Positions 3,955 through 63,758 of a stretch of DNA of 64,000 nt are shown here, one piece after another. The stretch covers positions 29,517 to 93,516 of the forward strand of contig DFRJ01000001.1 of assembly GCA_002378195.1 (NCBI GenBank), written 5' to 3'. The notes beneath the pieces were generated by a model. The model searched no databases. It was not told the DNA's origin and worked only from the letters and a program-made list of their open reading frames with translations. Position 1 is the first letter of the stretch; the number at the start of each line of letters is the position of its first letter. This DNA is from Patescibacteria group bacterium UBA3466. Its GTDB lineage: Bacteria; Patescibacteriota; Minisyncoccia; Phycocordibacterales; UBA918. The position numbers and the translations under genes are program-made.

Positions 3955-4000
3955 CACCACCTATTCAAATGGCGCTTTTGTTAAGCGCCTTTTTTCTTTT

Positions 4001-22405: not shown

Positions 22406-22480
22406 CTAACGAAAAAATATCGGGATATCATCGGCCGGTTTGTCTGGCGCCACAGGCGCCTTAGGCAAACCGGCCATTTC
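22406..22480. repeat. 75-bp perfect direct repeat, copy 2, which also encodes the comEC C-terminus
   Basis: It is identical to 20920-20994. On the minus strand it encodes EMAGLPKAPVAPDKPADDIPIFFR plus the stop codon of comEC. Confidence 0.9.
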
Positions 22481-32381: not shown

Positions 32382-34145
32382 CTATTCAGTCATTATTACC
32401 TGCAAGAAAGTATCACCATCAATTTCATACGGGTCAATCGTCTGCCCTACATATCCAGCGGCTGTGATATTAACCTCATAATCCTCTTCCGCTATCAGAC
32501 CGCCGGTGAAAAATGTTTGACCGCAGTTATCAGTTTCTTGGGTGACGTCATAACCAGTGCGGTTTACATTTACTTCTACCCCGGGCAATACCCTGCCTGT
32601 CACGTCGACCACATTTACCCGTAAAGTATTAGCAGCTCCACCAACTAAACGCAGATCAAGATTACCGTTGATTCCAGCCAAGTGACTAAAGGGGTGAGCG
32701 GGGCAAGCACTAGCGATATCTCTACCTCCAGAAATATTAAGTGTGTATTCATCGAATTCTAAATCAGTAATCGTATGTTCGCCTGATAAATCAGTGGTCA
32801 AAGAATCGGTGAATTTATAAATTGGTGAAGCATCATCTTCTGTGCCTATTAACTTCGCACCCTGAATATCAAAACCTACGCTACCTAGTGAGGTCTCGCC
32901 ATCACGATAATAAACATCGATCTCATCAACCTGAGGTGACACCGTGGTGTCAGAAGTAGTAAGGTTGATCCCAACAAAAATTGACGAATAAACGCTGGTG
33001 CTCAGTTCAGAAATATCGATAATATTGTCTGTGAAGCCAGCTAGGTTACCGGGCAAATCAATTTCGGGAATTAAAGTAAAAGTGTAAGGACCAGTTCCTA
33101 CCCCAGTAAACAACTGTACTTCTTGTGTGGTGTTAGCGGGAATATCTCTAGCTACCCGTACCGTATCCCAACCTAGCAAACCAGCTGGATTAATCGGGCC
33201 GACATAAACCACTCCACTAGTATCATAGACACCTAGCGTATTAGCGAGCTCTAATTCACCAGCAAACGACCTCACTCCACTACTAGATGCAACCGATAGC
33301 AAATCAGCGAAGTCTTCTCGGAAATATTGATCACTCCAATCAGAAAAAGTATTTATATCTAAATCACTCAACTCATCAATCTGAAAAGTGAGAGTTGACA
33401 CATCTGCCTCTAAGACAGTAAAGGGTGAAACTGATGGATTCGGATTGGTGGTGGTAGCTTCGTATGTCTGGTCGGTTGAGTATTGGTCTCCACTTATGTT
33501 TGCTGTCACTTCTACCTGATACCCGCTATCTGCCCGCACATTAAACAGGGCCTCGCCATTATAATTGGTGAAATTTGTCACATCATATGGAAATGTAGAA
33601 CTAGAACCATACAAACGCACAGACGCTCCTGGCAGTAAACCGGCCTCTGAGTCAATCACAATAATCCTAGCAGTTCCACCACCGGTAGTCGTTTCGATTG
33701 AACGCGGTACGATATTACTCAACAGCACCACACTACTGGTAGCACCGCCCCGGTTCCAAGTGTATTCCAGTCTGACTTTTTTATAATCAAAAATAATTCC
33801 GTTACCATCGATACCCGCCACATCGTCACCCGGATCATTGATCCAGTCGATACGCACTCGCTCGATAAACTCGATACCGTTTAAGGTGGTGGTACTGGTC
33901 TGCGGAATATTGCCAGCAGGATCACCGGCTATTACCCCCACATCTGCATAAGGTAAGGAACGGATGTACTCCATTCGATCATTAGCAATCGACAAAGCGC
34001 TCAACTTAGCCTCTGTGTTATTGATGAGATTAACTGAGTAGCTAAATGATGAGATTAAAGCTCCAAATACTAGCGTAATCAAAGCTGACACAATCAAAAC
34101 CTCTACTAGTGAGATCCCCAATTGTGACAATTTGATTTTATGCAT
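32382..34145 (-). CDS. Large prepilin-domain protein (minor pilin or pilus-tip protein)
   Basis: QLGISLVEVLIVSALI is a prepilin N-terminus, and the protein is 587 aa. Confidence 0.65.
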   Translation of the reverse strand: MHKIKLSQLGISLVEVLIVSALITLVFGALISSFSYSVNLINNTEAKLSALSIANDRMEYIRSLPYADVGVIAGDPAGNIPQTSTTTLNGIEFIERVRIDWINDPGDDVAGIDGNGIIFDYKKVRLEYTWNRGGATSSVVLLSNIVPRSIETTTGGGTARIIVIDSEAGLLPGASVRLYGSSSTFPYDVTNFTNYNGEALFNVRADSGYQVEVTANISGDQYSTDQTYEATTTNPNPSVSPFTVLEADVSTLTFQIDELSDLDINTFSDWSDQYFREDFADLLSVASSSGVRSFAGELELANTLGVYDTSGVVYVGPINPAGLLGWDTVRVARDIPANTTQEVQLFTGVGTGPYTFTLIPEIDLPGNLAGFTDNIIDISELSTSVYSSIFVGINLTTSDTTVSPQVDEIDVYYRDGETSLGSVGFDIQGAKLIGTEDDASPIYKFTDSLTTDLSGEHTITDLEFDEYTLNISGGRDIASACPAHPFSHLAGINGNLDLRLVGGAANTLRVNVVDVTGRVLPGVEVNVNRTGYDVTQETDNCGQTFFTGGLIAEEDYEVNITAAGYVGQTIDPYEIDGDTFLQVIMTE

Positions 34146-34150
34146 AGATA

Positions 34151-35380
34151 CTAGCCAATACCGTCTGAAATAGAATAGATTGGCGCAATCAACGCCATAG
34201 CAAAGAAGCCCACCCCGCCACCAATCACCACCATCAAAAGTGGTTCAATGATGGTCGACAGGTCTTTGGTTTTTCTTTCTACCTCAGTTTCATAAAACTG
34301 TGCCAACTCTCCCAACATACCAGCAATCTGACCAGTTTCTTCACCCACCAAAATCATTTCTCCTACCAACACAGGATACAAATCTTTTCTTTCAATAAAT
34401 GTTTCCGATAGTGCCGTTCCCTTCTCTACCCGCACCGACGCTTCAGCTAAGATTTTTTTATAAAATACGTTTTGCAGCACTTCTTCGGTGATATCAATAG
34501 ACTGAATAACATCCACACCTGAATTCAGAAGAGACGACAGGGTTCGTGCGGTACGAGCGGCATTAACCTCTTTGGCAATAGTCCCAATAACTGGCAACCG
34601 CACCACCACCCAAGAACTGACAATCTTACCGATCTTAGTTTTTAGGAAATACATAAATCCGACAATGAGTCCGACCATGCCACCAATTACCACAATAGTG
34701 TAATTTTGCATAAAATTACTAGCTGTAATCAAAAACTGAGTAGTGGCCGGCAAGTCTTTATCCATACCTTCAAATACCCCCGTGATTTGTGGCATCACGT
34801 AGATCATCATCAAAATTCCAATCACTACCATTACCACCACCACAATACTTGGATAAATCATGGCGCCCTTCACTTTTTTCTTGAGGTTGTTTGAGCGCTC
34901 CATCTGAATCGCCAATGTTTGTAGAGCTTCAGCTAGGTTTCCACTTTCTTCACCCGCCTTCACCATAGCCACATACAGATCATCAAACACCTCGGGAAAG
35001 TCTTGTAAAGACTCATAAAAAGTTCCTCCCTGATTGATCTTCTCGACCATACTCTTAGTGACCCCCTGCATGCGTGGATTGGTACTCTGTCTTTCAATCA
35101 CCGACAAAGCTCGAGTGACAGTAAGTCCAGCATTAAGCATCGAACCTAGGTTTCGGGTCACCATCACCAGCTCGTCTCCGGTCACGCGGCTGAGGAAATA
35201 GTTCATCTTCTCAACATTGATCAGACGACTAAAACTAAACTTTGAAGTCTCTTCAATAGAGGATACTGTATGCCCTTGCCCACGTGCGACCGCATAGACT
35301 CCAAAACGATCCTCCGCCTCAACGGTTTCAGTTACCTTCTTGCCTTCACTATCTTCCCCAGTGTAGGTAAAAGTGGCCAT
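34151..35380 (-). CDS. pilC: Type IV pilus assembly platform protein PilC/GspF
   Basis: It has the GspF family architecture with three transmembrane helices and conserved cytoplasmic domains. Confidence 0.85.
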   Translation of the reverse strand: MATFTYTGEDSEGKKVTETVEAEDRFGVYAVARGQGHTVSSIEETSKFSFSRLINVEKMNYFLSRVTGDELVMVTRNLGSMLNAGLTVTRALSVIERQSTNPRMQGVTKSMVEKINQGGTFYESLQDFPEVFDDLYVAMVKAGEESGNLAEALQTLAIQMERSNNLKKKVKGAMIYPSIVVVVMVVIGILMMIYVMPQITGVFEGMDKDLPATTQFLITASNFMQNYTIVVIGGMVGLIVGFMYFLKTKIGKIVSSWVVVRLPVIGTIAKEVNAARTARTLSSLLNSGVDVIQSIDITEEVLQNVFYKKILAEASVRVEKGTALSETFIERKDLYPVLVGEMILVGEETGQIAGMLGELAQFYETEVERKTKDLSTIIEPLLMVVIGGGVGFFAMALIAPIYSISDGIG

Positions 35381-35388
35381 ACTAATGA

Positions 35389-37137
35389 TTATTCGTTAAT
35401 TACTCTTAATACTTCTTCGATACTAGTCAGGCCTTGTGCTGCCTTGAAAATACCGTCTTCAATCATAGTGAGCATTCCTTCCTTGCGCGCTTGTTCTTGC
35501 AATTCTTCACCGGTCTTCTCTGCCATTACCATTTCTCGAATGCCGGGTGACACTTCCAGTACTTCATGAATACCCATCCGACCGTTGTAGCCATCTTCGG
35601 TCTCACCTTTTTCTTTTGGATGATAAAACGGCACATCATTCCAGGTCGCGTCATCATTAACCACTTTCTCTTCTTTCAGGGCGGCAAGGACGAGGTCGAG
35701 ATTCACCTTCTCGCCCAACTCATCTTTCTCGGCTTTGGTGAGAATGTATGGCAATTTGTCATCAGCCAGCTTTCGCACCAATCGTTGACCAATTGCCACT
35801 CGCAAAGTTGAGGTAAGCAGGAATGATTCGGCACCCATGTCAGTCAAGCGTGCGATGGTTCCAGATGCTGAGTTGGTGTGAATAGTCGCTAGCACTAAGT
35901 GCCCGGTCAACGCTGCATTGATCGCCAACGATGCCGTTTCTTCATCACGAATCTCCCCCACCATAATCACATCAGGGTCCTGACGCATAAGAGACCGGAG
36001 ACCAGCAGCAAAGGTGAAGCCAATATCAGGCTTAACCTGAGACTGATTTACTCGTGGCATTTGGTACTCGATCGGATCTTCGATGGTAGAAATGTTTACT
36101 TCCGGTGTATTTAAAAGATCGAGAATAGTATAGAGAGTAGTCGACTTACCAGAACCAGTTGGCCCGGTGACCAAAATAATTCCGGTAGTGGCGCGGGTAG
36201 CCCGGTGAATCCGGTCGAGAGTGGTGCCATGGAAACCAATTCCTTCTAGTGAGAAACCGCTGCGGTTTTCCCGCAACAAACGCATTACCACCTTTTCACC
36301 ATAAAAAGTTGGTAGCATTGAAACTCGAAACGCCACTTTCTGTCCATCCATCTCCATCTTGAATCGTCCGTCTTGCGGAAGACGTTTTTGGTCAAGCTTG
36401 AGGTTTGAAAGCACCTTGAGACGGGCCACGATACTGCTATCAGCAATCTTTGGCAACTTCATCGCGTCGTTCAAAATACCGTCAATGCGATACCGCACCA
36501 ACACCTCCTCTTCCATTGGTTCAATATGAATATCAGATGCTCCTTGAATGATCGCGTGTCGAAGGAGTGTGTCGACAATACGTACCACCGGCAGGTCTTC
36601 CGCCATCTTCTTCAGCTCCTTCTCACTAACTTCCTCTCCTTCTTCATTCAAGACCTTCAATTCTGAAGCGTCTTTCATAATAAGATCACCAAACTCATCT
36701 TTGAGGTTTTTTTGGTACATTCTAAGCGCGCCTCGCATTGATTCAGTGTCGGTAAGGCGTGGCTGGATTTTGAGACCCACCTTTTTCTTTACAAAGTCGA
36801 TGGCTGGCAGGTCGGCGGTATCGAGCATGGCCACTTCGAGTGTATCTTCGCTCTTTTTGTAGGCAATAATATTGTGAGTTCGAGCTACTGGCTCGGGGAT
36901 GAGAGTAAGGGTTTCAAAGTCTATTTTCATTTCCTTGAGAGAAACAAACGGAATTCCAAGTACATATGACTCAACGCGACGCATATCGTCCTCGGTCATG
37001 TGGCCGTGTGAGATAAGAGCTTCACTTAAAGTACGCTTCTCTTCCTTGGCGATTTTCTCAGCCTCAGCAATATCAGCCTTGGTGATTAAACCAGCATCTA
37101 AGATAAACCGCTTGAGTTGATCATCTTGAATACGCAT
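35389..37137 (-). CDS. pilB: Type IV pilus assembly ATPase PilB/GspE
   Basis: The N-terminal GspE_N domain is followed by Walker A (GPTGSGKSTTLY) and a His box. Confidence 0.9.
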   Translation of the reverse strand: MRIQDDQLKRFILDAGLITKADIAEAEKIAKEEKRTLSEALISHGHMTEDDMRRVESYVLGIPFVSLKEMKIDFETLTLIPEPVARTHNIIAYKKSEDTLEVAMLDTADLPAIDFVKKKVGLKIQPRLTDTESMRGALRMYQKNLKDEFGDLIMKDASELKVLNEEGEEVSEKELKKMAEDLPVVRIVDTLLRHAIIQGASDIHIEPMEEEVLVRYRIDGILNDAMKLPKIADSSIVARLKVLSNLKLDQKRLPQDGRFKMEMDGQKVAFRVSMLPTFYGEKVVMRLLRENRSGFSLEGIGFHGTTLDRIHRATRATTGIILVTGPTGSGKSTTLYTILDLLNTPEVNISTIEDPIEYQMPRVNQSQVKPDIGFTFAAGLRSLMRQDPDVIMVGEIRDEETASLAINAALTGHLVLATIHTNSASGTIARLTDMGAESFLLTSTLRVAIGQRLVRKLADDKLPYILTKAEKDELGEKVNLDLVLAALKEEKVVNDDATWNDVPFYHPKEKGETEDGYNGRMGIHEVLEVSPGIREMVMAEKTGEELQEQARKEGMLTMIEDGIFKAAQGLTSIEEVLRVINE

Positions 37138-44871: not shown

Positions 44872-44919
44872 AAAGGCCGGAGGAGCAAAGCTCCTCCGGC
44901 CTTTAGCCTAAACATGCTA
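44872..44919. repeat. 48-nt repeat (terminator hairpin plus tail), copy 1
   Basis: aaaggccggaggagcaaagctcctccggcctttagcctaaacatgcta is identical to 46545-46592. It lies between convergent genes, and its last 3 nt give the TAG stop of the minus-strand gene. Confidence 0.85.
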
Positions 44920-45588
44920 CCCCCGTAAACGTGCCCGCACCATCAAGTATGACGGATACGTGTCACCGTTAATCTCTTCGCAGCCATCTGACAATCCTTC
45001 TTCTAGAGAGATCAGATCAAAATTTTGAAGAAAAAAAGGATTAAAGAAATCTACAAATGTATGACTTGGCTCCGCCACCGTAACTTTTCCATCGAATAAA
45101 ACTGAGTGCACAACCTCCTGTTTAAAGTAATTCTTACCAACTCTTTTCTTCTCGACGAACTGCCGAATCGGATGAACCCAAAGAAAGACTATTTCTGCGG
45201 CAGGATTCAGATGCTGCACCAACCTGAGAAGGAATGAATGGTAGGAGTATACATTTTGGATTGCCCATTTACTTACGACCAAATCAAAACTTTCTTTGGC
45301 AGGAAGGCCGTTGAGCGTTTCCATATCTGAAACATACAAATTGTCGGCTACTGCTTTTGTCTTCGCAACACTAATCATATCAGGCGAAATATCAAGGCCA
45401 ACAATTCTAGATGCTCCCCTAGATTGATACTCGATAAATTCATCACCTGGACCGCATCCCAAATCAAGCAACTTCTTACCAACCAATGAATCGGGTATCG
45501 ATCTCAGGAATGAACGAGTGCAATGCTGCTTGTACCCATCAAATAAATTCCATCCGAAAGATAGCTCGCCATCATATTGGTTTTTCAT
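44917..45588 (-). CDS. Class I SAM-dependent methyltransferase
   Basis: LLDLGCGPGDEF is motif I. The start was moved to the Met with a GGAG RBS (MKNQYDG). Confidence 0.75.
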   Translation of the reverse strand: MKNQYDGELSFGWNLFDGYKQHCTRSFLRSIPDSLVGKKLLDLGCGPGDEFIEYQSRGASRIVGLDISPDMISVAKTKAVADNLYVSDMETLNGLPAKESFDLVVSKWAIQNVYSYHSFLLRLVQHLNPAAEIVFLWVHPIRQFVEKKRVGKNYFKQEVVHSVLFDGKVTVAEPSHTFVDFFNPFFLQNFDLISLEEGLSDGCEEINGDTYPSYLMVRARLRG

Positions 45589-45696
45589 AGAACTTCTCCT
45601 TTTAATAAAGACCAAGGTGAAAACATTAAAACGTAAATTTTTGACAATTTCAAAAATAAATGTATTAATGTATTAAATTTAAAGTTTTTCTTTAAA

Positions 45697-46521
45697 ATGT
45701 TTAACTCAAAACATCAATCAACTGAAGACAAGTTAATCTCCCTACTGCTCAATGGAGAGCATACCGTCGCAGAATTATTCAAACAGCTCAACCAAAATGG
45801 CCATAAGATATCGCTACAAGCAGTCTACGACGCTATCAGACAGCTTGTTTCTGCGGGAGTGGTGATAAAGCAATCAAAATTATGCAGCCTAGATGCAGAG
45901 TGGAGAATTAAAACTGCAAATATCTTAAGTAGCACTCCCTCCTTGCCGGAGCCGCTGGAAGGCGAAGCGCAAACATTTAACTTTAATTCGTTTAACAGTT
46001 TGGATACTTATTGGAAACACATTAATGCTCTACTGACCCGAGCTGTTCCTGATTACCCTGTTTTTTATTTCGTGTCGCATGAGTTTTGGGTGTATCAGGA
46101 GGAAAGAAAAGAGAGTCAGCTAGATTTCATCAAGCAACAAACGAGTAAGCGAAGTACGTACATTCTTATCGGTGGCACAACTCAATACGACAAAATATAC
46201 AAAGAAAGGTTCAGGCAATACCGTCAGATTGAACTAAGTGAATTTACTCCACTCAAACGACATGAACATCTTACAGTATGTGGTGACTTTGTAATTTTCA
46301 CTAAAATTACAAAAACGACATCGGAATTGATAGATAAAATATACCAGGAAAGTGTAAATGAAACTGAATTAACATCTTCATTACAAAAAATCTTTACCTC
46401 GAAGCAAAAAACGTCTCTGGTCATCAAGCGCGATGCAAGCCTTGCAATAAAATTAAGAAAGCAGATTAGTAAGAACATGTACCTCCCAAAAGAAGAAAGA
46501 GAGAAGTGGAAATTCTTCTAA
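45697..46521 (+). CDS. Hypothetical protein with an N-terminal winged-helix-like region
   Basis: LISLLLNGEHTVAELFKQL...AVYDAIRQLVSAGVV resembles a MarR/ArsR-like winged helix. The rest of the 274-aa product is unknown. Confidence 0.45.
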   Translation: MFNSKHQSTEDKLISLLLNGEHTVAELFKQLNQNGHKISLQAVYDAIRQLVSAGVVIKQSKLCSLDAEWRIKTANILSSTPSLPEPLEGEAQTFNFNSFNSLDTYWKHINALLTRAVPDYPVFYFVSHEFWVYQEERKESQLDFIKQQTSKRSTYILIGGTTQYDKIYKERFRQYRQIELSEFTPLKRHEHLTVCGDFVIFTKITKTTSELIDKIYQESVNETELTSSLQKIFTSKQKTSLVIKRDASLAIKLRKQISKNMYLPKEEREKWKFF

Positions 46522-46544
46522 ACCTTACTAATTTTCATAAAGAG

Positions 46545-46592
46545 AAAGGCCGGAGGAGCAAAGCTCCTCCGGCCTTTAGCCTAAACATGCTA
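46545..46592. repeat. 48-nt repeat, copy 2
   Basis: Identical to 44872-44919, and again it supplies the stop codon of the minus-strand gene at 46590. Confidence 0.85.
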
Positions 46593-47153
46593 GGCGTGTT
46601 TTTGTGCTCGCATCTCAGGTCGCAAAGCAGGATCGGTTTTACTATCCCAGCCTTGGATCTCAAAGAGCCAAGTCATGATCGGTTCATGATCATCGGCTTC
46701 ACTAAAAACACAAAAGTAGGCATTTATAAAGCCGGCATCTTCATAACGAAGCGTAACGTCAAGCTTAAAGCCTTCCCGGAAGGCAACAGCAACTGTGCTG
46801 GTCAACCAAAGATCAAGCTTAGCGGCATTGCCTTCAGCTATCATCTCAGCTAGTGTCGGCAAGGATATCAGCGTACATTCAGGAAGATGAGAAGAGTTCA
46901 GGAGAACATGCTCCAATCCATCATGACCACGCTCGGTTAGGATCATCTGATATTCCCGCTCGGTAGATTTCGAACCAGCAAACAAATTTGCTTCGATCTG
47001 AAACCACGGCTCGCCACGATCATGTGCTGACACGAAATGCAGCTCAATAAAAATTGAATCAGCCAGCATTTCTAGTCGGTCAAGGTTAATGGAGGAACCT
47101 TCGATCACGAAAGTATTCTCCAATTCCGGCTTCTTGAAAGGAACTACTACCAT
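46590..47153 (-). CDS. Hypothetical protein
   Basis: The start was set at MVVVPF, which has the RBS ggagagaaga. Confidence 0.45.
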   Translation of the reverse strand: MVVVPFKKPELENTFVIEGSSINLDRLEMLADSIFIELHFVSAHDRGEPWFQIEANLFAGSKSTEREYQMILTERGHDGLEHVLLNSSHLPECTLISLPTLAEMIAEGNAAKLDLWLTSTVAVAFREGFKLDVTLRYEDAGFINAYFCVFSEADDHEPIMTWLFEIQGWDSKTDPALRPEMRAQKHA

Positions 47154-47269
47154 TCTTCTCTCCTTATTAGAGTTGGTTTGGTGGCTGGCATAATACGGAT
47201 TTAGGATAGAAAAGTCAAACAAAAAACAGGCCTGCGTGAGCAAGCCTGTTGGGTTGAAGGTAGTCTGTA

Positions 47270-47779
47270 TCAGTGGCGGAGTGCACTCAACAGCTCCTTC
47301 GAAGGTGCGCTACGAGACTCAGTCTCGTAGACAGCGGTCGACCGAATGAACGCCACCGGCACATCGTAGGTTTTAAAGGGTCGAAAAGACACAACATACT
47401 GCCCCTCTTGCCAGTTCAAGCGAATTTCGCAGGTGTGCGCTAGAAATGCCACCGCTTCCTGAGCCAAAATCCGGCGTAGCTGATCGAGACTGCGATAACC
47501 TGCTGCCAGGCTCTGCAAGCGACCAAGACTCATTCGATGACTGGTGACCAATTCGCTCAGTCCCTCTTCTTCCAGCTCAACCACATAGCGCTTATGAGAC
47601 AAGTGATTGTCGTCACCAAACCACAGTGACCCTCTCCAAATCAAATCTGACTTAACCTCCAGTCCGATTGTGAATTCGGCAGACTGTTCCTGCTCGCTGC
47701 TAATCGGATGTTGTGTCAGGCCCTTGAACTGCAGCTCAGGCACGGCTTCCGTAACACTGTAATCAAACTCATATTCCAT
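47270..47779 (-). CDS. Hypothetical protein
   Basis: A 169-aa ORF on the same strand as, and directly upstream of, the 46590 gene. Confidence 0.45.
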   Translation of the reverse strand: MEYEFDYSVTEAVPELQFKGLTQHPISSEQEQSAEFTIGLEVKSDLIWRGSLWFGDDNHLSHKRYVVELEEEGLSELVTSHRMSLGRLQSLAAGYRSLDQLRRILAQEAVAFLAHTCEIRLNWQEGQYVVSFRPFKTYDVPVAFIRSTAVYETESRSAPSKELLSALRH

Positions 47780-48006: not shown

Positions 48007-48279
48007 ATGAACAAAGCAGACATCATCAGCCAAGTACACGAAGTGCTAAACACTACCAAGGCAGACGCTGAACGAGCAGTAGACGCCGTATTCGCTAGCA
48101 TTGAATCAGCTATGAAGGACGGTACTCAAGTATCAGTAGCTGGATTTGGTATCTTTGAAGCCAAGATGCGAGCAGCTCGAGAAGCACGTAACCCTCGAAC
48201 TGGTGAAACAGTACAAGTACCCGCAATGCGAGTACCAAAGTTTAGAGCAGCTAAGGCTCTAAAGGACGCTGTAAAATAA
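48007..48279 (+). CDS. hup: DNA-binding protein HU
   Basis: MNKADIISQV...GFGIFEAKMRAAREARNPRTGETVQVPA is the HU/IHF signature. Confidence 0.9.
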   Translation: MNKADIISQVHEVLNTTKADAERAVDAVFASIESAMKDGTQVSVAGFGIFEAKMRAAREARNPRTGETVQVPAMRVPKFRAAKALKDAVK

Positions 48280-48328: not shown

Positions 48329-48360
48329 TGCCTCTCACAAAGATATGTTATACTAGTCGA

Positions 48361-48437
48361 GTAACGGAGGTAATATCGTTACGGAGGAAATACAAGTTAT
48401 TTCCCACCACACTGTAAGAGCCCCGACGGGGGCTTTT
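48361..48437 (+). ncRNA. Candidate small RNA upstream of tRNA-Gly
   Basis: A promoter-like TTGCCT...TATACT at 48328-48354 precedes the unit, and the hairpin agcccc-gac-ggggct plus tttt at 48418-48437 ends it. The roughly 77-nt transcript carries two copies of g(t)taacggagg and no ORF. Confidence 0.3.
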
Positions 48438-48494
48438 ACTTTGAAGATTGAAATTCTTATCTGTTGTGATAGGATTGTGGAACTTCAATTTACC

Positions 48495-48565
48495 GCGGGT
48501 GTAGTTTAGTGGTAAAACGACTGCCTTCCAAGCAGTAGTCGGGAGTTCGATTCTTCTCACCCGCA
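48495..48565 (+). tRNA. tRNA-Gly (anticodon TCC)
   Basis: It folds as a cloverleaf by hand: acceptor gcgggtg/cacccgc, D-arm gttt/aaac, anticodon stem actgc/gcagt with loop cttccaa, and T-loop ttcgatt. A terminator follows at 48576-48605. Confidence 0.85.
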
Positions 48566-48615
48566 CAGCCAACATGAAAAGCCGTCCCGAAGGGGACGGC
48601 TTTTCTGTTGCTGCT

Positions 48616-48783
48616 GTGCGGAGTGGAGAAAGTGCCTTGAGGCACTTTCGTGAGGAATCGAACGCCGGAATGATGTGAGGAAGTATGACGAACGAATGAG
48701 GCGTGTCCCGCGGCACCTGCTAATTTATGAGGTACGAAATAAATTAGGTTGGTGACCGTCAGGACGATTCTTCCTCTCACCCT
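48616..48783 (+). repeat. Mosaic element copy F plus a degenerate tRNA-Gly 3'-end fragment
   Basis: gtgcggag...hairpin gaaagtgcc/ggcactttc...gatgtgaggaag...gacgaac...ggtgacc shares modules with D, E, A and B. It ends in ggtgacc-gtcaggac-gattcttcctctcaccc, which resembles the tRNA-Gly(TCC) 3' end gattcttctcacccgc. Confidence 0.5.
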
Positions 48784-48806
48784 ATTTAATCTGCTATACT
48801 CAGCAC

Positions 48807-49340
48807 ATGCAAAACAAACCACCAATGGAAACTGATTCACCAGAGGAACTGTTGGATTTGGTCGACGAAAATGACAACGTCATTGGCACAAAAAGCAGGA
48901 AGGAAATTTACGCTGAAGGTTTACGTAACTACAGAGTCGTTAACGCCTTTATAGTTAATTCTGAAGGGAAATTATGGATACCGAGAAGAGTTACTGCAAA
49001 GAAACTATTTCCAAACGGACTAGACTACAGTATAGCTGGTCATGTTGAGTCTGGAGAATCATACGAAGAAGGAATGAAGAAAGAAGCAATTGAAGAAGTG
49101 AATATTGATTTGAATGTTATCCCTTTTAAGGAAGTAGCTACTTTTACTCCTCACACTCACAACGTCCACTGTTTTCAGAAAGTGTATGTAATTGAATCTA
49201 ATGAAGCTCCAGATTACAACAGAGATGATTTTTCTGGTTACGAGTGGCTTTCTCCGGAAGAAATAATCAAAAGATATGAAGAGGGTGAGTATGGCAAGGA
49301 AGATATTCCTGAGGTGGTTAAGCTCTGCTTTCTCCAATAA
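48807..49340 (+). CDS. Nudix hydrolase
   Basis: GHVESGESYEEGMKKEAIEEVNI matches the Nudix box G-x5-E-x7-(K/R)E-x2-EE-x-(G/N)-U. TATACT lies 8 nt before the ATG, so the mRNA may be leaderless. Confidence 0.8.
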   Translation: MQNKPPMETDSPEELLDLVDENDNVIGTKSRKEIYAEGLRNYRVVNAFIVNSEGKLWIPRRVTAKKLFPNGLDYSIAGHVESGESYEEGMKKEAIEEVNIDLNVIPFKEVATFTPHTHNVHCFQKVYVIESNEAPDYNRDDFSGYEWLSPEEIIKRYEEGEYGKEDIPEVVKLCFLQ

Positions 49341-49370
49341 AAGTTCGAACATCGTTGAATAACCTGCACA
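49341..49370 (+). repeat. 30-nt direct repeat R1 (aagttcgaacatcgttgaataaccYgcaca)
   Basis: It begins immediately after the Nudix stop codon, and a unique hairpin terminator (aagcgccc-tgtt-gggcgctt) follows. Confidence 0.85.
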
Positions 49371-49398
49371 CATGATTTAAGCGCCCTGTTGGGCGCTT

Positions 49399-49878
49399 TC
49401 ATCGTTCGATTCTTTGATTAAATTTTGATTCTCTCTCCTCTTTAGAAAAGCTTAATGCCCACTCCCACGCCTCAAAATATATGTCTTTTGGAAGATTTTC
49501 TTTTTCCCACAAAACAGCACTATCAGCATATTCATCCCCATATAAATCATGTAAGACATCATACAGTCTAAGGAAAAGTGTCTTATGCACTTCTAAGCTA
49601 CTTGAGTTGCAGTCCCTGTCTCCAATAAGTATGTGACCCAGTTCATGAATCAAAATTGACCTTTTGACTTCATATGGATAACTCGCTCTCAATTTAAACG
49701 GACGCGACCTACTTACACCCTCAAAAACTTTTGCGTCAATCTCTTTTTGTTCAAATTCAATACCTGTCTTTTCTTGCCAAACCTCTACTATTTTCCTACC
49801 ATCCAAATTCCAAATTTCACCATATTCATTTGCAGCTGTTTCGAATTGTGGTTCGGCTGGATTAAAGTTTATTCTCAT
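49399..49878 (-). CDS. Small protein with an HExxH motif (putative zinc metallopeptidase-like)
   Basis: ILIHELGHIL contains HELGH. The protein is 159 aa with no other recognisable domain. Confidence 0.45.
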   Translation of the reverse strand: MRINFNPAEPQFETAANEYGEIWNLDGRKIVEVWQEKTGIEFEQKEIDAKVFEGVSRSRPFKLRASYPYEVKRSILIHELGHILIGDRDCNSSSLEVHKTLFLRLYDVLHDLYGDEYADSAVLWEKENLPKDIYFEAWEWALSFSKEERESKFNQRIER

Positions 49879-49901
49879 ACACCAACTATATCATTTCAAT
49901 A

Positions 49902-49931
49902 AAGTTCGAACATCGTTGAATAACCCGCACA
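49902..49931 (+). repeat. 30-nt direct repeat R2
   Basis: aagttcgaacatcgttgaataacccgcaca is followed by the hairpin agcccct-attt-aggggtttt. It lies about 150 nt upstream of the second Nudix gene. Confidence 0.85.
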
Positions 49932-50075
49932 GATACAATGAGCCCCTATTTAGGGGTTTTATTGTTGGAGGGATGGTTGAAATATTGGCAACTATCGAAC
50001 TTTGTAGTAATTTACTTAGATACAGAGCCGGAGACAAAGCGTACTTGGCACCTATTAAAAGCATAAAATATATTT

Positions 50076-50498
50076 ATGAAAGAAATACCTAATTGTTTTT
50101 ATCGTGTCAGTATTAAGGCACTAGTCTTGAATGAGACGAAAGACAAGTTTCTTCTATGCAAAGAAGAAGATGGGCGTTGGGAGCTACCTGGAGGAGGACT
50201 AGAATGGGGAATGTCACCACAAGAAGACTTGCCTAGAGAACTGATGGAAGAAATGGGTCTCAAGGCAACATCAATAGCTGAAAACCCCTGCTACTTCATA
50301 ACTGGTCAAAGTACCAATTATCCAGAAGTTAAAATTGCAAACGTATTGTATGAAACTAAGCTTGAACACCTAGACTTCACTCCATCTGATGAATGCATAG
50401 AAATACGATTTGTGAACAAAGATGATGTAGAAGGGATGGAACTTTTTGATGGACCTAAAAAACTATTGAGCATATTTAATCCTGATAATCACCAATAA
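50076..50498 (+). CDS. Nudix hydrolase
   Basis: GGGLEWGMSPQEDLPRELMEEMGL contains a Nudix box (RELMEEMGL). The protein is 140 aa. Confidence 0.8.
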   Translation: MKEIPNCFYRVSIKALVLNETKDKFLLCKEEDGRWELPGGGLEWGMSPQEDLPRELMEEMGLKATSIAENPCYFITGQSTNYPEVKIANVLYETKLEHLDFTPSDECIEIRFVNKDDVEGMELFDGPKKLLSIFNPDNHQ

Positions 50499-50528
50499 AA
50501 GTTCGAACATCGTTGAATAACCCGCACA
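50499..50528 (+). repeat. 30-nt direct repeat R3
   Basis: It starts right after the Nudix stop (..caataa|aagttcgaac..), the same junction as R1. The hairpin aatgagcc-tattctgca-aggctcatttttt follows. Confidence 0.85.
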
Positions 50529-50597
50529 AAGAAAATGAGCCTATTCTGCAAGGCTCATTTTTTGTATACGTAATTGAAAAAGTGACCACTCTCGAAC

Positions 50598-50894
50598 TTA
50601 CACCAGCTGGCAGTATTCCGTGCCAAAGCGCAGTTCCGTGCCAAGCTGTGCCTGCACCATTTCCCAGAACTGAGCAGCCTCTTCTTTTCCTGCTTCTCGA
50701 AGGGCAACGATGGCATCAAAAGTGCGTACGATTGACCCACCGTACTGCTCGTCGTTATTCCAATTGAGACTGTCTTGCAGGACATCTGCCTCTGCCTGGT
50801 CAATGAGTGGTATCTCTACACCTACCCACTGTTCACGGATATGCTGGGGCGCAAATCCAGCGGGTGTGGCAATAATGCGTACTTTCTTGGTCAT
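50598..50894 (-). CDS. Hypothetical protein
   Basis: The start was moved to MTKKVRIIATPAG, which has a GGAG RBS, giving 98 aa. The track's upstream start falls inside repeat R4. Confidence 0.4.
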   Translation of the reverse strand: MTKKVRIIATPAGFAPQHIREQWVGVEIPLIDQAEADVLQDSLNWNNDEQYGGSIVRTFDAIVALREAGKEEAAQFWEMVQAQLGTELRFGTEYCQLV

Positions 50895-50958
50895 CTGAAG
50901 AACTCCTGTAGGAACAAAAACGGACTTACACCTTACACTCTTATAAATTATTTTGCAA

Positions 50959-50988
50959 AACCGTTCGAACATCGTTGAATAACCCGCA
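50959..50988 (+). repeat. 30-nt direct repeat R4
   Basis: ccgttcgaacatcgttgaataacccgcaca is followed by the hairpin aaaagaccgttt-tttaa-gaaacggtctttt. Confidence 0.85.
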
Positions 50989-51065
50989 CAAAAGTGTAAA
51001 GAAAAGACCGTTTTTTAAGAAACGGTCTTTTCTTTAGTAAGCAAACTGCTTTGCTTGCGTGCGCT

Positions 51066-51246
51066 TTTGTGAAGCGGAGCCATAATTTTCTCCCCTCCCT
51101 AGGGAGAAAATGGGCGAGCTGGGGCAGCAGGTACTTAGTGCTCGCAGCTAGCATAGCTTGCGAGAATACTTAGTAACCTGCGCCAGACAATAGTTAGATA
51201 AATTGCAAATATTTATGTGAAGGTGACCGATTCTTCTCACTCGCAT
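51066..51246 (+). repeat. Mosaic element copy A ending in a tRNA-Gly(TCC) 3'-end-like fragment
   Basis: gaagcggagccataattttctcccctccctagggagaaaatgggcgagctggggcagcaggtacttagtgctcgc... is about 90% identical to copy B over 70 nt, with compensatory changes in the hairpin. It ends ggtgacc-gattcttctcactcgca, and cgattcttctcac(t/c)cgca matches the tRNA-Gly(TCC) 3' end at 18 of 19 positions. Confidence 0.7.
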
Positions 51247-51291
51247 TTAAAAAAGTGAAAGCCACTGAAGAAGTGACTTTGCTCCAGTGGC

Positions 51292-51588
51292 TTAATTGTC
51301 TGGCATGACGTCATGCAAATCAGGGTACTTTGGGTCCATAGGATCAATACCGTTCGCAATCGCTTCCTTGCGACGACGAACCAGTTCATTACCAGCTTCA
51401 CTCATTCGAAAACCTACGTCGAGATTACAGAGTTCTGCTTTGTAGTGCTTGATTACGGCTTTTTTGTATTCTTCATAGTACGCACCGTACCAAAACACGA
51501 ATCTGAGCCCCAAAAGAGCAAAGCGTTTAGGGTACGGCATCCAGTTGAAGAAAAAAGCCCAAGGAAATATTTTTGAGAACATTGTCAC
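51292..51588 (-). CDS. Hypothetical protein
   Basis: A 98-aa ORF, Trp/Tyr-rich at the N-terminus, with no recognisable motifs. Confidence 0.4.
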   Translation of the reverse strand: MTMFSKIFPWAFFFNWMPYPKRFALLGLRFVFWYGAYYEEYKKAVIKHYKAELCNLDVGFRMSEAGNELVRRRKEAIANGIDPMDPKYPDLHDVMPDN

Positions 51589-51642
51589 CTCCTTAATTTG
51601 GTTGACAGTCTATTTGTATCAAAACTACGTAGATATGCAATT

Positions 51643-51667
51643 GTTTCCTAAAAAGTTCGAACATCGT
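51643..51667 (+). repeat. 30-nt direct repeat R5 (truncated variant)
   Basis: aagttcgaacatcgttgaataaccc is followed by tccaaaa rather than gcaca. Confidence 0.8.
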
Positions 51668-51676
51668 TGAATAACC

Positions 51677-51716
51677 CTCCAAAAATTTTGTTACGTAGCA
51701 TGTTACGTAACATGCT
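51677..51716. promoter_or_regulatory. Perfect 38-40-bp palindrome upstream of the CYTH gene
   Basis: ttgttacgtagcatgttac|gtaacatgctacgtaacaa has 19-bp perfect arms with no spacer. A TATAAT at about 51745 follows, and the CYTH ATG is at 51826. Confidence 0.6.
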
Positions 51717-51825
51717 ACGTAACAAAGCACACCTGATTTGCCTGTCTGATAGATAGCAGTATAATCAGATTATCTCTGAGTCGGCGATAACGCATCGTGG
51801 CAAAGTTACCAAATAAATATTTTTT

Positions 51826-52338
51826 ATGATTGAACTAGAACGTACTTTCTTAGCCAAATCATTACCAAGTAATCTCATGGAATGTGAGAATAAGGAAATT
51901 GAAGATCTCTATATAGAGAACGGCCATGAGCACGCTGATTTACGTTTACGCAAAAATGGTGATACGTACGAAATTACTAAGAAAAAGCCGGTCGATGACG
52001 CTGATGTATCAAAGCAAATTGAAACCACCATCCATATCAATGAAGCTGAATACAACAGCCTCGCCAAGGCTGATGGTAAGCGTGTAGCAAAAACCCGCTA
52101 CTACTTCGAACACAATGGACGCACCGCTGAGTTTGATGTCTTTTCTGGCGAACTTGAAGGTCTAGTGCTGGTCGATTTTGAATTCGACACTGAAGAAGAG
52201 CGAGATGGGTTTGAAATGCCAGATTTTTGCCTCAAAGATATCACTCAAGAAGAGTTTATTGCTGGCGGACTACTAGCTGGTAAAAGCTATGGTGATATCA
52301 AAGATGATCTTAAACGCTTTAACTACAACCGCCTCTAA
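51826..52338 (+). CDS. CYTH-domain protein (class IV adenylate cyclase / triphosphatase fold)
   Basis: The N-terminal MIELERTFL is the ExExK motif, and acidic patches characteristic of CYTH are present. Confidence 0.7.
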   Translation: MIELERTFLAKSLPSNLMECENKEIEDLYIENGHEHADLRLRKNGDTYEITKKKPVDDADVSKQIETTIHINEAEYNSLAKADGKRVAKTRYYFEHNGRTAEFDVFSGELEGLVLVDFEFDTEEERDGFEMPDFCLKDITQEEFIAGGLLAGKSYGDIKDDLKRFNYNRL

Positions 52339-52759: not shown

Positions 52760-53842
52760 ATGCAATTTCTTACCGATATTTTAGTTGTTGTGCTATCTAG
52801 CTACTTGGCCTTTACCAATTCGCTAGCCCACAACATAGAAAGTCTTTTTATTGAACCTGAAACAGAGATCGTCACTGCAGTAGAGCCTCAGACAGAAAAC
52901 ATTTCTACCCTACCCAGTCAGATCACCTCAGCCATACCAGACGTTCTATTAACTAGTGTTGAATACCAATCAGCCGCACTCGCTAGTTCGCAAAATTTGA
53001 CGGGCGCTAACACCCTTGAGCCTTTGGATGCAATTGTGAACATCTTTTGTACCATGACTACCGATGACTACATTCGCACCACTACTGGTACTGGCTTTTT
53101 TATTGATCGCGATGGAGTAGTAATGACTAATGCTCATGTCGCGCAATTCCTACTCCTTGAAGAAGCTAATCAAATCGGCGATGTGGAGTGTATACTTCGC
53201 AACGGCAACCCAGCGGCGCCCCGCTACCAAGCCGAGCTACTATACATTTCACCAGCATGGATCCAAGAAAATTCTGGGGTAATTTCTGAAGACACTCCAA
53301 TGGGTACTGGTGAGCGCGACTATGCGCTTTTGTACGTTAGCGGCAGTGTTGATGGATCTCCACTGCCAGCGGAATTTCCCGCTCTGGGTTTTAGAACAGC
53401 GGACTTACCGACGTCGATCAAAAATGACGCCGTCGTGGCAGCCGGCTACCCAGCTACCCCACTTTTTGAAGACGGCCCTAGCGCAGATCTGATACCAAAA
53501 AAGGCTGACACCTCTGTATCTGAACTATATACCTTTGGATCTAACCTGGCTGACGTATTTTCCATTCGTGGCAGCGAAGTAGGTGAACAAGGATCGTCTG
53601 GCGGCCCAGTCTTAAATGAAGACGGCGAAGTAATTGGTATTATTGTCACTCGCGGTGACGATGAAGCCGACGGCGAAGGTAGTTTGAGAGCTATAACAAT
53701 ATCGCACGTAGAAAGAACCATCAAAGAAGAGACTAATTTCTCACTAGAAGAAAATCTCAATGGCAATCTTCCATTCAGAGCCGAGGTGTTCGCCGACACC
53801 ATGACTCCATTTTTGTTGACGATTTTGCAGCAGGCAAACTAG
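52760..53842 (+). CDS. Trypsin-like serine protease (S1 family), secreted or membrane-anchored
   Basis: The N-terminal hydrophobic segment is followed by TGTGFFIDRDGVVMTNAHV (His region) and GSSGGPV (catalytic Ser). Confidence 0.75.
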   Translation: MQFLTDILVVVLSSYLAFTNSLAHNIESLFIEPETEIVTAVEPQTENISTLPSQITSAIPDVLLTSVEYQSAALASSQNLTGANTLEPLDAIVNIFCTMTTDDYIRTTTGTGFFIDRDGVVMTNAHVAQFLLLEEANQIGDVECILRNGNPAAPRYQAELLYISPAWIQENSGVISEDTPMGTGERDYALLYVSGSVDGSPLPAEFPALGFRTADLPTSIKNDAVVAAGYPATPLFEDGPSADLIPKKADTSVSELYTFGSNLADVFSIRGSEVGEQGSSGGPVLNEDGEVIGIIVTRGDDEADGEGSLRAITISHVERTIKEETNFSLEENLNGNLPFRAEVFADTMTPFLLTILQQAN

Positions 53843-63496: not shown

Positions 63497-63609
63497 GTGG
63501 CTGCAGGGAATCGGTCACCTATTCAGCCTAGTCTTAAGTACTTGGTGCCCCAGCTCGCCTATTTTCTCCCTTATGAGGGGGAGAAAATTATGGCTCCGCT
63601 TCACAAATA
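63497..63609 (-). repeat. Mosaic element copy B, flanked by a tRNA-Gly(GCC) 3'-end duplicate
   Basis: The reverse complement gaagcggagccataattttctccccctcataagggagaaaataggcgagctggggcaccaagtactta...ggtgacc|gattccctgcagcc matches A. Its terminal gctgcagggaatcg matches the tRNA-Gly(GCC) 3' end gctacagggaatcg at 13 of 14 positions. Confidence 0.7.
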
Positions 63610-63687
63610 GTGTACGCAAGCCAAGCAGTTGGCTTGCTATAAACAAAATCACCTGATTACTCAGGTGATTTTGCTTATACACTTTTG

Positions 63688-63758
63688 TGCGGCTACAGGG
63701 AATCGAACCCTGATCTTATCGTTGGCAACGATACGTTCTACCACTAAACTATAGCCGC
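63688..63758 (-). tRNA. tRNA-Gly (anticodon GCC)
   Basis: The minus-strand hand fold gives acceptor gcggcta/tagccgc, D-arm gttt/gaac, anticodon stem tatcg/cgata with loop ttgccaa, and T-arm caggg-ttcgatt-ccctg. A palindromic terminator lies at 63646-63675. Confidence 0.85.

Follow-up and report, generated by a model that had tools for sequence, protein, structure and literature searches.

A repeat-punctuated gene array at the 3' end of tRNA-Gly(TCC) in a marine Patescibacterium, with features consistent with tandem accretion of integrase-less cassettes

How do bacteria of the Candidate Phyla Radiation, the Patescibacteria, gain and exchange accessory genes when their genomes are ~1 Mb in size and contain few recognisable mobile elements? 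The process is poorly understood, and a locus in one of these organisms brings the question into focus. Within a 64,000-nucleotide stretch of the genome of the Patescibacterium UBA3466 (contig DFRJ01000001.1), referred to here as the window, a repeat of ~30 nt, which we term R, punctuates an array of small genes on the 3' side of tRNA-Gly(TCC). The host is an ultra-small marine member of the Paceibacteria; its exact proteins were recovered on marine TARA metagenome contigs and the arrangement was the same in all of them. The feature is real, non-random and comparatively well supported. As to how it arose, the account that we lean towards, with a confidence only slightly on the favourable side, is the tandem accretion of cassettes that lack an integrase at the tRNA-Gly 3' end. 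R would be the cassette-end site, the crossover would fall at or next to the sequence GCACA, and the recombinase would act in trans. We found no description of such an arrangement for Patescibacteria in the searchable literature.

The original prediction, made from the window alone, had reported a 30-nt repeat present five times, and this was confirmed. The 28-mer GTTCGAACATCGTTGAATAACCCGCACA occurs in five copies with 0-3 mismatches, all on the + strand, at 49343, 49904, 50501, 50963 and 51655, with none elsewhere in the 64 kb. The number expected by chance is zero (0 matches in 100 shuffles), which rules out a chance repeat. Together with its A-rich prefix (AA, or CC in one copy) R spans ~30 nt, and all five copies fall within 49341-51682 (Table 1) with start-to-start spacings of 561, 597, 462 and 692 nt. 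The coordinates first given for the repeat stand, except for R5, which starts at 51653 and not at 51643. The two Nudix genes end in TAA, and R1 and R3 begin on the very next base, as had been noticed. A hairpin is located within ~10 nt 3' of every R and folds better than shuffled controls (z -2.0 to -6.9), in line with the earlier description of a hairpin after each copy, and R alone has no stable fold. The palindrome that follows R5 had been measured at 38 bp and is in fact 40 bp long (51687-51726).

Several other identities for R were considered and set aside. Rfam matched only the tRNA and R is unfolded, which argues against a known or structured RNA. The distances to the minus-strand genes are inconsistent and promoter-like sites are not enriched (8 found against 8.9 expected), as would not be the case for a promoter of these genes. 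R is not the chromosomal dif site, as there is no switch in GC skew at the locus and the skew is negative on both sides. An attC-like site, or a miniature inverted-repeat transposable element with terminal inverted repeats, was also rejected: paired ends of the form AAAGTTCGA...TCGAACTTT are found in just one homologous module family of ~120 nt (z -2 to -3.5).

Relatives of the locus were collected through RNase Y, which is encoded 3.6 kb upstream, giving 80 Patescibacteria/Paceibacteria loci at 55-84% identity (loci other than the window are designated by L numbers). In these 80 loci the gene order ClpP-RNaseY-HU ... trypsin-like protease-(MscS)-DUF5667-sigma factor is kept, with tRNA-Gly(TCC) between the HU and protease genes. 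The gap on the 3' side of the tRNA ranges from 60 nt to 7.3 kb, whereas on the 5' side it is mostly 80-450 nt. This expansion is independent of the orientation of the tRNA, which may sit beside HU, as in the window, or inverted beside the protease gene. As the variable DNA is always on the 3' side of the tRNA, in either orientation, the tRNA-Gly(TCC) 3' end is a class-wide insertion hot spot. The predicted accessory island linked to tRNA-Gly(TCC), with the architecture of tandem insertions and no integrase in the window, is borne out, and relatives compared at the same tRNA do carry different genes. The island had been drawn to end before the CYTH gene, which is too short: the variable region spans the DNA from the tRNA 3' end to the protease gene at 52760, and R5, gene E and the CYTH gene lie inside it. 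The G+C content of the island is 41.5%, against ~44-45% across most of the remaining window. We also observed that the block of tRNA-Gly(TCC) and island is inverted between lineages (L018-L097), with the tRNA beside HU in the closest relatives and beside the protease gene in most others.

R itself is found in ~15 other genomes or contig families. The consensus of the family is GTTC[G/T]AAC[A/G]TCGT-N10-GCACA with an A-rich 5' end and a fixed spacing, and the site may also be written GTTCKAACRTCGT-N10-GCACA, with a GTTCGAAC block and a GCACA block. One of these genomes, a groundwater metagenome-assembled genome (L020) found through RNase Y (77% identical) and hence retrieved independently of the R sequence, contains two intact copies (…GAATAGGGTGCACA) and one degenerate copy between entirely different genes. 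Scanning metagenomes with AGTTCGAACRTCGTTGAATA gave 16 loci, of which two are evident chance matches inside a gene, without GCACA. A second subtype of R (N10 = CCCACAAGGY) was identified in L023, L032 (4 copies), L042 and L048 (3 copies). Wherever the flanks are visible (L098, L102/L109, L105, L107, L113, L103/L112 and L100), R lies 3' of tRNA-Gly(TCC), on the same strand, and between HU and the protease gene or CYTH.

Neither in the window nor in ~1.3 Mb of related loci did we find a member of the family with the GCACA block outside the island. A dispersed, genome-wide repeat is thus not supported, and the idea that R is an element of cassette junctions holds to this extent; across the window and ~1.4 Mb of related loci R is confined to the island. 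IMG/VR viral contigs gave no true match to R, two matches being chance occurrences in unrelated DNA, and PHROGs gave generic Nudix and CYTH-like matches only, so that a phage or satellite origin was rejected. R is 19-20/20 identical across genomes in which the coding DNA of the adjacent Nudix C gene is only 69-77% identical, a figure that partly reflects ascertainment for loci found with the R pattern but not for L020. The combination of high conservation with the lack of a fold fits a DNA site recognised by a protein. The most degenerate copy of R is the one furthest from the tRNA both in the window (R5) and in L020, and further degenerate copies are present in L055, L032 and L102.

The relationship between R and the tRNA is seen most directly in the sequences that follow them. 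The 3' end of tRNA-Gly(TCC) (...AGTTCGATTCTTCTCACCCGCACA) has AGTTCGA and ACCCGCACA in common with R (repeat family D4), and beyond this end part of the trailer is likewise common to the tRNA and R. We clustered the 60 nt 3' of every tRNA 3' end, tRNA-end duplicate and R, and three of the clusters mix left arms. The trailer GCCAACATGAAAAG with its hairpin comes after the tRNA in five species, including that of the window, after R in L099 and after a degenerate R in L055. The trailer GATGAAATTAGCGCC..., which resembles that of R1 and hairpin 1 in the window, comes after a tRNA-end duplicate in L020 and after R in L106. The trailer of R2 in the window, GATACAATGAGCCCCTATTTAGGGG, is found directly 3' of the tRNA in L055, where it is 94% identical. 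Lastly, the trailer of R4 together with mosaic element 2, described below (50984-51137), matches the 3' flank of a second tRNA gene, tRNA-Gly(GCC) (63535-63692, - strand), with 80% identity over 160 nt. In every trailer case the homology starts at GCACA and the sequences to its left are unrelated, being the body of a tRNA on one side of the comparison and R on the other. Judged from these alignments, trailer swaps at a fixed GCACA would be the expected product of recombination between sites that share a short core.

The larger units also occur in changed surroundings. Nudix C is found at different positions of the array and directly after the tRNA in L097; in L025 a 408-aa gene is followed by Nudix C, and in L104 the order is reversed with R between the two. 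The module of R3 and hairpin 3 is 83% identical over 100 nt to an R module of L020 with different genes on both sides, and a unit of ~125 nt, made up of R, the hairpin and a conserved block, is common to six modules. At R4 in the window, and likewise in L102, L032 (twice), L042 and L099, a complete mosaic element comes after R, an arrangement that would correspond to the attP-like junction expected between tandem integrated units.

The mosaic element (~170-215 nt) has four parts: a trailer that includes a terminator hairpin, the tRNA 3' end in inverted form and split by another hairpin, ~100 nt of further sequence, and the tRNA 3' end again in direct orientation. It is present 3' of tRNA-Gly(TCC) in at least 14 species (among L019-L061, L098 and L102), and the inverted and direct copies track each species' own tRNA. 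Its internal hairpin shows up to six compensatory changes per pair in a consensus fold, and a search of Rfam gave no family match. The element may be an accessory (P') arm of an attachment site, a miniature integrated element or a structured RNA. The original prediction had treated it, with the fragments of the tRNA, as a simple boundary of the island; instead, these are copies of an element of ~200 nt that is found in at least 14 species and also at tRNA-Gly(GCC). The fragments themselves needed correction. The one at 51228-51245 matches the tRNA at 17 of 18 positions, and not at 18 of 19, and is identical to the tRNA and the duplicate of L020, while the one at 48765-48783 carries a 2-nt insertion. 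Once the shared GGTGACCGATTC module is masked the two fragments are weak evidence taken alone; their status beyond chance is validated by exact duplicates of the tRNA 3' end, 14-24 nt long and position-homologous, in 14 related species, each matching its own tRNA.

How might such an array be built? Under tandem accretion, a unit would comprise a trailer with its terminator hairpin, sometimes as part of a whole ~200-nt mosaic element, then one or a few genes in either orientation, then R, and it would carry no recombinase of its own. R can be read as the P-arm and core of an attP/attR-type site, the GCACA core (here the longer ACCCGCACA) being common to the last bases of the tRNA gene. A circular cassette with R would recombine with the tRNA 3' end, with a resident R or with a tRNA-end duplicate, and the crossover would occur at or beside GCACA. 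The tRNA would stay intact and gain the trailer of the cassette, and R would come to lie at the end of the cassette away from the tRNA, fused to the earlier trailer. Repeated insertion would move older cassettes outward, and the reverse reaction would excise them. Since the island encodes no recombinase, action in trans is required, and the enzyme may be a chromosomal tyrosine recombinase, for example of the Xer type, or come from a transient helper element. The repeat itself, its confinement to this locus across species, its constant orientation, the changing cargo, the trailer swaps and the lack of any integrase in the searches made are direct observations; the role of R as a recombination site, the position of strand exchange and the enzyme are what we infer from them. 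If R is functional and served in trans, it would represent a compact mechanism of gene capture for streamlined, host-dependent bacteria, with a defined substrate in the 30-nt site and the tRNA end. If it is only att-site debris, this would be an ordinary tRNA island.

The search for an enzyme gave the following results. No tyrosine recombinase or integrase was detected in the window using Pfam on all larger open reading frames (ORFs) and the precomputed Pfam annotations, and an integrase just outside is also not the answer, as none is present in the ~5 kb beyond the window end. Xer-like genes were detected by tblastn in six distant loci only, 4-6 kb beyond the tRNA cluster and in no case in the interval from HU to the protease gene. 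Inspection by eye of the larger ORFs in 12 related islands revealed no recombinase, no search being made there for fragments, phage genes or replication genes, and no mobility gene was seen in the roughly 50 islands examined.

Several known systems share part of this organisation. Like an integron, or a cluster of attC sites lacking integron-integrases (CALIN), the locus has short cassettes that mostly contain one gene (0.46-0.69 kb here), each terminating in a repeated site. The ORFs often stop at or inside the site, there is one fixed anchor, the cargo is variable and mostly unknown or accessory, and the array contains no recombinase. An integron has its anchor at attI beside intI, whereas this array is anchored at a tRNA 3' end. 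Conservation of R lies in its sequence (~20 invariant bases) and R is unfolded, whereas attC is an imperfect palindrome of 57-141 nt (R''-L''...L'-R') conserved in its folded structure. Integron cassettes are co-oriented and mostly promoterless; here three of the five genes are on the opposite strand and each unit has its own hairpin terminator. No IntI was found either by Pfam or with an XerD probe in tblastn, although intI is also absent from CALINs. The locus resembles an integron or CALIN array but lacks what defines an integron, as neither IntI nor an attC-type structure is present and the genes occupy both strands. It is possible, but we consider it doubtful, that the locus represents an integron-like capture platform of a new type in the Paceibacteria, in which the tRNA-Gly 3' end would be the insertion site, R would take the role of attC, the mosaic element would be an accessory arm and a chromosomal enzyme, possibly Xer, would be the recombinase. 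If true, this would provide dedicated swapping of nucleotide-housekeeping and other accessory genes in ~1 Mb organisms without plasmids and prophages.

Additive islands anchored at RNA genes offer a second comparison. The tycheposons of Prochlorococcus are built by integrative elements at tRNA genes (bioRxiv 10.1101/2020.12.28.424599), and the ssrA islands of Dehalococcoides are additive islands anchored at the transfer-messenger RNA (tmRNA) gene (PMC3146451). The likenesses are a streamlined genome, growth at the 3' end of a tRNA or tmRNA gene that stays intact, older material pushed outward, partial tRNA repeats between units and content that differs between relatives at a conserved site. 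The islands in those organisms differ in carrying a tyrosine recombinase, often with replication genes, in units of several kb, whereas the units here have single genes and no mobility gene. The main repeat here is also not a copy of the tRNA end, sharing with it only AGTTCGA and (ACC)CGCACA. The locus has the positional features of tRNA-anchored additive islands, and no integrase encoded by an element was found.

Systems in which an enzyme acts in trans are useful as analogies, and two of them would illustrate how integrase-less units could move. The cis-mobilizable elements (CIMEs) of streptococcal integrative and conjugative elements (ICEs) are att-bounded units without an integrase, arranged in tandem at the 3' end of a conserved gene and movable in trans. 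The array described here is alike in each of these respects, with a recombinase possibly in trans. It differs in that the known CIMEs depend on the integrase of an adjacent resident ICE or integrative and mobilizable element and are not arrays of five or more single-gene units; to our knowledge they have not been described in Patescibacteria. In Xer-dependent modules, namely the integrative mobile elements exploiting Xer (IMEXs) and the pdif modules of Acinetobacter plasmids, sites of ~28 bp flank small modules that lack a recombinase, and the host enzyme acts in trans. R spans 28 nt and by eye its reverse complement is loosely dif-like (TGTGCGGGTTA-TTCAAC-GATGTTCGAAC). Against E. coli dif, with its 11-nt XerC arm, 6-nt centre and 11-nt XerD arm, the agreement by eye is ~7/11 and 6/11, which is weak, and E. 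coli dif may not be that of the host. Unlike IMEXs, which sit at the chromosomal dif site and terminus, the locus has no switch in GC skew, and the copies of R all lie in direct orientation, in contrast to pdif sites, which alternate. GCACA, to which the exchange point maps, would also lie at the outer edge of the putative site and not at its centre.

A number of observations weigh against tandem accretion by a recombinase acting in trans. No recombinase was identified, and divergent enzymes could escape the tblastn probes used on the related islands (XerD and a generic tyrosine-recombinase C-terminus). We saw no excised circle, empty site or strain polymorphism, the same array being present in at least 20 near-identical contigs and no cassette being gained or lost among 22 to 23 of them. 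R is also without the obvious dyad symmetry that is usual in core sites of tyrosine recombinases. Modules of trailer and hairpin recur with different genes on their right-hand side (hairpin 3 in the window and L020, hairpin 2 in the window and L055), and therefore at least one further exchange point, or another process, is needed. The 4 nt that precede GCACA vary from one genome to the next but are uniform inside each (ACCC/ACCT in the window, GGGT in L020 and L106, GCCC in L111), so that either lineage-restricted cassette pools or gene conversion must be invoked. In L102 it is the copy nearer the tRNA that is more degenerate. The restriction of R to one locus, finally, is read from the window and related loci.

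These difficulties raise the question of whether R acts in gene expression instead. It could, with its hairpin, be a conserved cis-acting expression module, either a 3'-end or terminator signal or the site of a locus-specific regulator, sometimes with a promoter-like block, and the genes would turn over by homologous recombination or DNA uptake across the spacers. We think this unlikely, although the hairpin within ~10 nt of every R usually has a T-run, about three quarters of the copies come after an ORF on their own strand (in at least 12 cases R touches or overlaps its stop codon) and six modules share the ~125-nt unit. The ComEC and type IV pilus genes of the organism make DNA uptake plausible, and the failure to find a recombinase is also consistent with such a module. 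However, six copies follow the start of a gene on the opposite strand, where there is no upstream transcript to end (R2, R4 and R5 in the window, and copies in L020, L102 and L105), and the distance from R to the start codon of minus-strand genes is inconsistent, at 24-67 nt. An expression signal would also not readily account for the confinement of R to one locus, always in the orientation of the tRNA and whatever the orientation of the neighbouring gene, nor for the fixed breakpoint in the exchange of trailers among the tRNA, tRNA-end duplicates and R. R is unstructured with no match in Rfam, and 30 nt is short for RecA-dependent exchange.

Two further explanations keep R as a mark of mobility but without a cassette system of the kind proposed. 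The island may be the debris of integrase-bearing elements, phage-like or tycheposon-like, that have lost their mobility genes, with R as a decaying att scar of no function. The site at a tRNA 3' end, the partial tRNA repeats, the variable content, the lack of an integrase and the degenerate copies of R listed above would all agree with this, and most tRNA islands of Prochlorococcus hold no element at any one time (bioRxiv 10.1101/2020.12.28.424599). We nevertheless find it distinctly improbable, as a neutral scar would not keep 19-20/20 identity where the neighbouring coding DNA is at 69-77%, nor recur 3-5 times per array at the spacing of single genes. The XerD probe found no recombinase in any related island, none was recognised by eye in the larger ORFs of 12, and no match came from IMG/VR. 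Transposition on a single strand by an HUH-type enzyme encoded elsewhere (IS200/IS605-, IS91- or Helitron-like) would place the exchange 3' of GCACA, with R as the right end and the trailer hairpins as left ends. Read from its sequence, R does contain a short imperfect inverted repeat, a small hairpin TTCgAAC/GTTGAA followed by 11 nt ending in GCACA, but the predicted stability of this hairpin is lacking. All copies share one orientation, each unit has its junctions on either side immediately after GCACA, and the hairpins are 8-12 nt inside the left junction, which fits such a transposon. On the other hand, Pfam revealed no Y1 or Y2 HUH transposase in the window, and the left-end hairpins are wholly different in sequence between cassettes and resemble ordinary terminators, where transposons of the IS200/IS605 and IS91 types have conserved subterminal hairpins. 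The 14-24 nt copies of the tRNA 3' end, together with the partial match between R and the T-loop (AGTTCGA), moreover form an att-type signature, and we regard transposition of this type as very improbable.

What, then, is carried in the array? The prediction of two Nudix hydrolases holds by Pfam, and that of a CYTH protein is supported by PDB entries 2FBL and 3TYP (E ~4e-12), though Pfam misses it. The assignment of an HExxH protein also stands, as the motif, HELxH, is invariant in its family and there is a weak match to a zincin-like fold. For the confident predicted model of this protein (predicted local distance difference test score of 94) the sole resemblance is to catalytic domains of M1 zinc peptidases, and it is weak (E ~0.09, template modelling score ~0.5), with further weak matches to an ImmA-like phrog and to RmrA. 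R does not travel with this gene: its homologues (39-46% identical) are located near an insertion sequence element and toxin-antitoxin or housekeeping genes, with no R and no tRNA. In L100, L102 and L104 a homologue of Nudix C stops at R, in L032 at a type-b R, and a CYTH gene is 3' of the array in L100 too. Elsewhere the cargo varies by species and includes several unrelated Nudix proteins, cytidine/dCMP deaminase, CYTH, a GNAT acetyltransferase, peptidase S51, DUF5672 and a tetratricopeptide-repeat protein. As the HExxH homologues occur in unrelated contexts without R, and the islands of relatives carry other combinations, the cargo is not a single Nudix/CYTH/HExxH functional system; co-occurrence of the components is not conserved. 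The suggestion of a defence cargo was not upheld, since PADLOC matched a candidate Nudix family weakly and unrelated proteins in two marginal cases, none of which would define a defence system. Likewise, nothing in the gene content points to a unit for tRNA or NAD-derivative metabolism. The recurrence of Nudix, CYTH and deaminase genes suggests that the flexible genes here adjust nucleotide housekeeping or salvage, on which these organisms critically depend.

Table 1. Features of the hot spot and of the second tRNA-Gly gene in the window (a dot marks features without a strand)
Feature	Position	Strand	Evidence and remarks
HU gene	48007..48279	+	Pfam Bac_DNA_binding 2.7e-31; syntenic in 80 loci; conserved left border of hot spot
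tRNA-Gly(TCC)	48495-48566	+	ARAGORN; Rfam 72.6 bits; anchor (attB-like)
Mosaic element 1	48567..48783	+	trailer and terminator hairpin 48576-48604; inverted tRNA 3'-end copy split by hairpin ~48614-48683; ~80 nt; degenerate direct copy 48765-48783
Nudix hydrolase A	48807..49340	+	177 aa, YfcD/IDI-like; Pfam NUDIX 8.8e-14; NCBIfam matches below cut-offs; cassette 1 cargo
R1 (AAGTTCGAACATCGTTGAATAACCTGCACA)	49341-49370	+	first base is the base after the Nudix A stop codon
Hairpin 1	49381..49396	.	two-way terminator between Nudix A and HExxH gene
HExxH protein	49399..49878	-	159 aa; no Pfam family; rare family, zincin-like fold (weak match)
R2	49902-49931	+	repeat search
Hairpin 2	49942..49957	+	trailer GATACAATGAGCCCCTATTTAGGGG; fold
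Conserved motif before Nudix C	50022..50052	+	ACAGAGCCGGAG..GCGTACTTGGCACC
Nudix hydrolase C	50076..50498	+	140 aa; Pfam NUDIX; most frequently recurring cassette cargo
R3	50499-50528	+	first base is the base after the Nudix C stop codon
Hairpin 3	50533..50560	.	fold
Gene D	50598..50894	-	98 aa, no family
R4	50961-50990	+	CC replaces AA at 5' end
Hairpin 4	50997..51036	.	20+20 nt, 95% complementary
Mosaic element 2	51037..51246	+	behind R4 as mosaic element 1 is behind the tRNA; ends in tRNA 3'-end copy 51228-51245 (17/18)
Gene E	51292..51588	-	96-98 aa, no family
R5	51653-51682	+	copy most distant from tRNA; 3' end degenerate, CCCTCCAA where others have CCCGCACA
Palindrome after R5	51687..51726	.	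40 bp, 20+20, 100% complementary
CYTH/TTM-family protein	51826..52338	+	170 aa; PDB 2FBL and 3TYP, E ~4e-12; Pfam misses it
Trypsin-like protease gene	52760..53842	+	Pfam Trypsin_2; synteny; conserved right border of hot spot
tRNA-Gly(GCC)	63687-63758	-	mosaic copy at 63499-63692 (- strand) on 3' side

Some of the features in Table 1 carry details of their own. The motif ahead of Nudix C is strongly conserved, in the form ACAGAGCCGGAG-N8-GCGT(A)CTTGGCAC, and is also present in L102, L032, L025 and L097; it could be an operator or a small RNA motif. A TTGGCA-N17/18-TAnnnT pair finishes 1-3 nt before the ATG of Nudix C, the proteins themselves being just 58-86% identical, and from this spacing the Nudix C mRNA may be leaderless. 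In the CYTH/TTM protein the ExExK motif reads ELERT, with K changed to T, and its activity may, to judge by this substitution, differ from that of the characterised triphosphatases. Three metagenome contigs (among L118, L120, L121 and L119) break inside the 40-bp palindrome, and L119 continues into the neighbourhood of rplU, which encodes ribosomal protein L21. The divergence of L119 exactly at the palindrome may reflect another copy in the genome or a chimera of assembly. L036 contains a similar palindrome (3987-4021), with 91% identity over 35 nt.

Around the hot spot, repeated ACGGAGG and a hairpin are found in the non-coding DNA that separates HU from the tRNA (48346-48443), and this spacer can be aligned in L018, L020, L023, L028 and L102. 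The interval between RNase Y and HU (44917-47779) is a second variable spot with four genes, encoding a methyltransferase, a 274-aa winged-helix-like protein and proteins of 217 and 169 aa. None of these has a convincing homologue in the 80 related loci, the sole match being a methyltransferase of 24% identity in L077. The window also contains ComEC and genes for a type IV pilus or an ATPase like that of type II secretion systems (22406-23965 and 32382-37137), because of which the organism probably takes up DNA, and this bears on the route by which cassettes might arrive. Just beyond tRNA-Gly(GCC), ~0.8-3.5 kb past the 3' end of the window, L125 contains two paralogues of ~220 aa (1804-2481 and 3853-4512). 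These have an N-terminal HTH_23-like domain and possibly a LAGLIDADG-like motif, and adjoin the gene for a CCA-adding enzyme.

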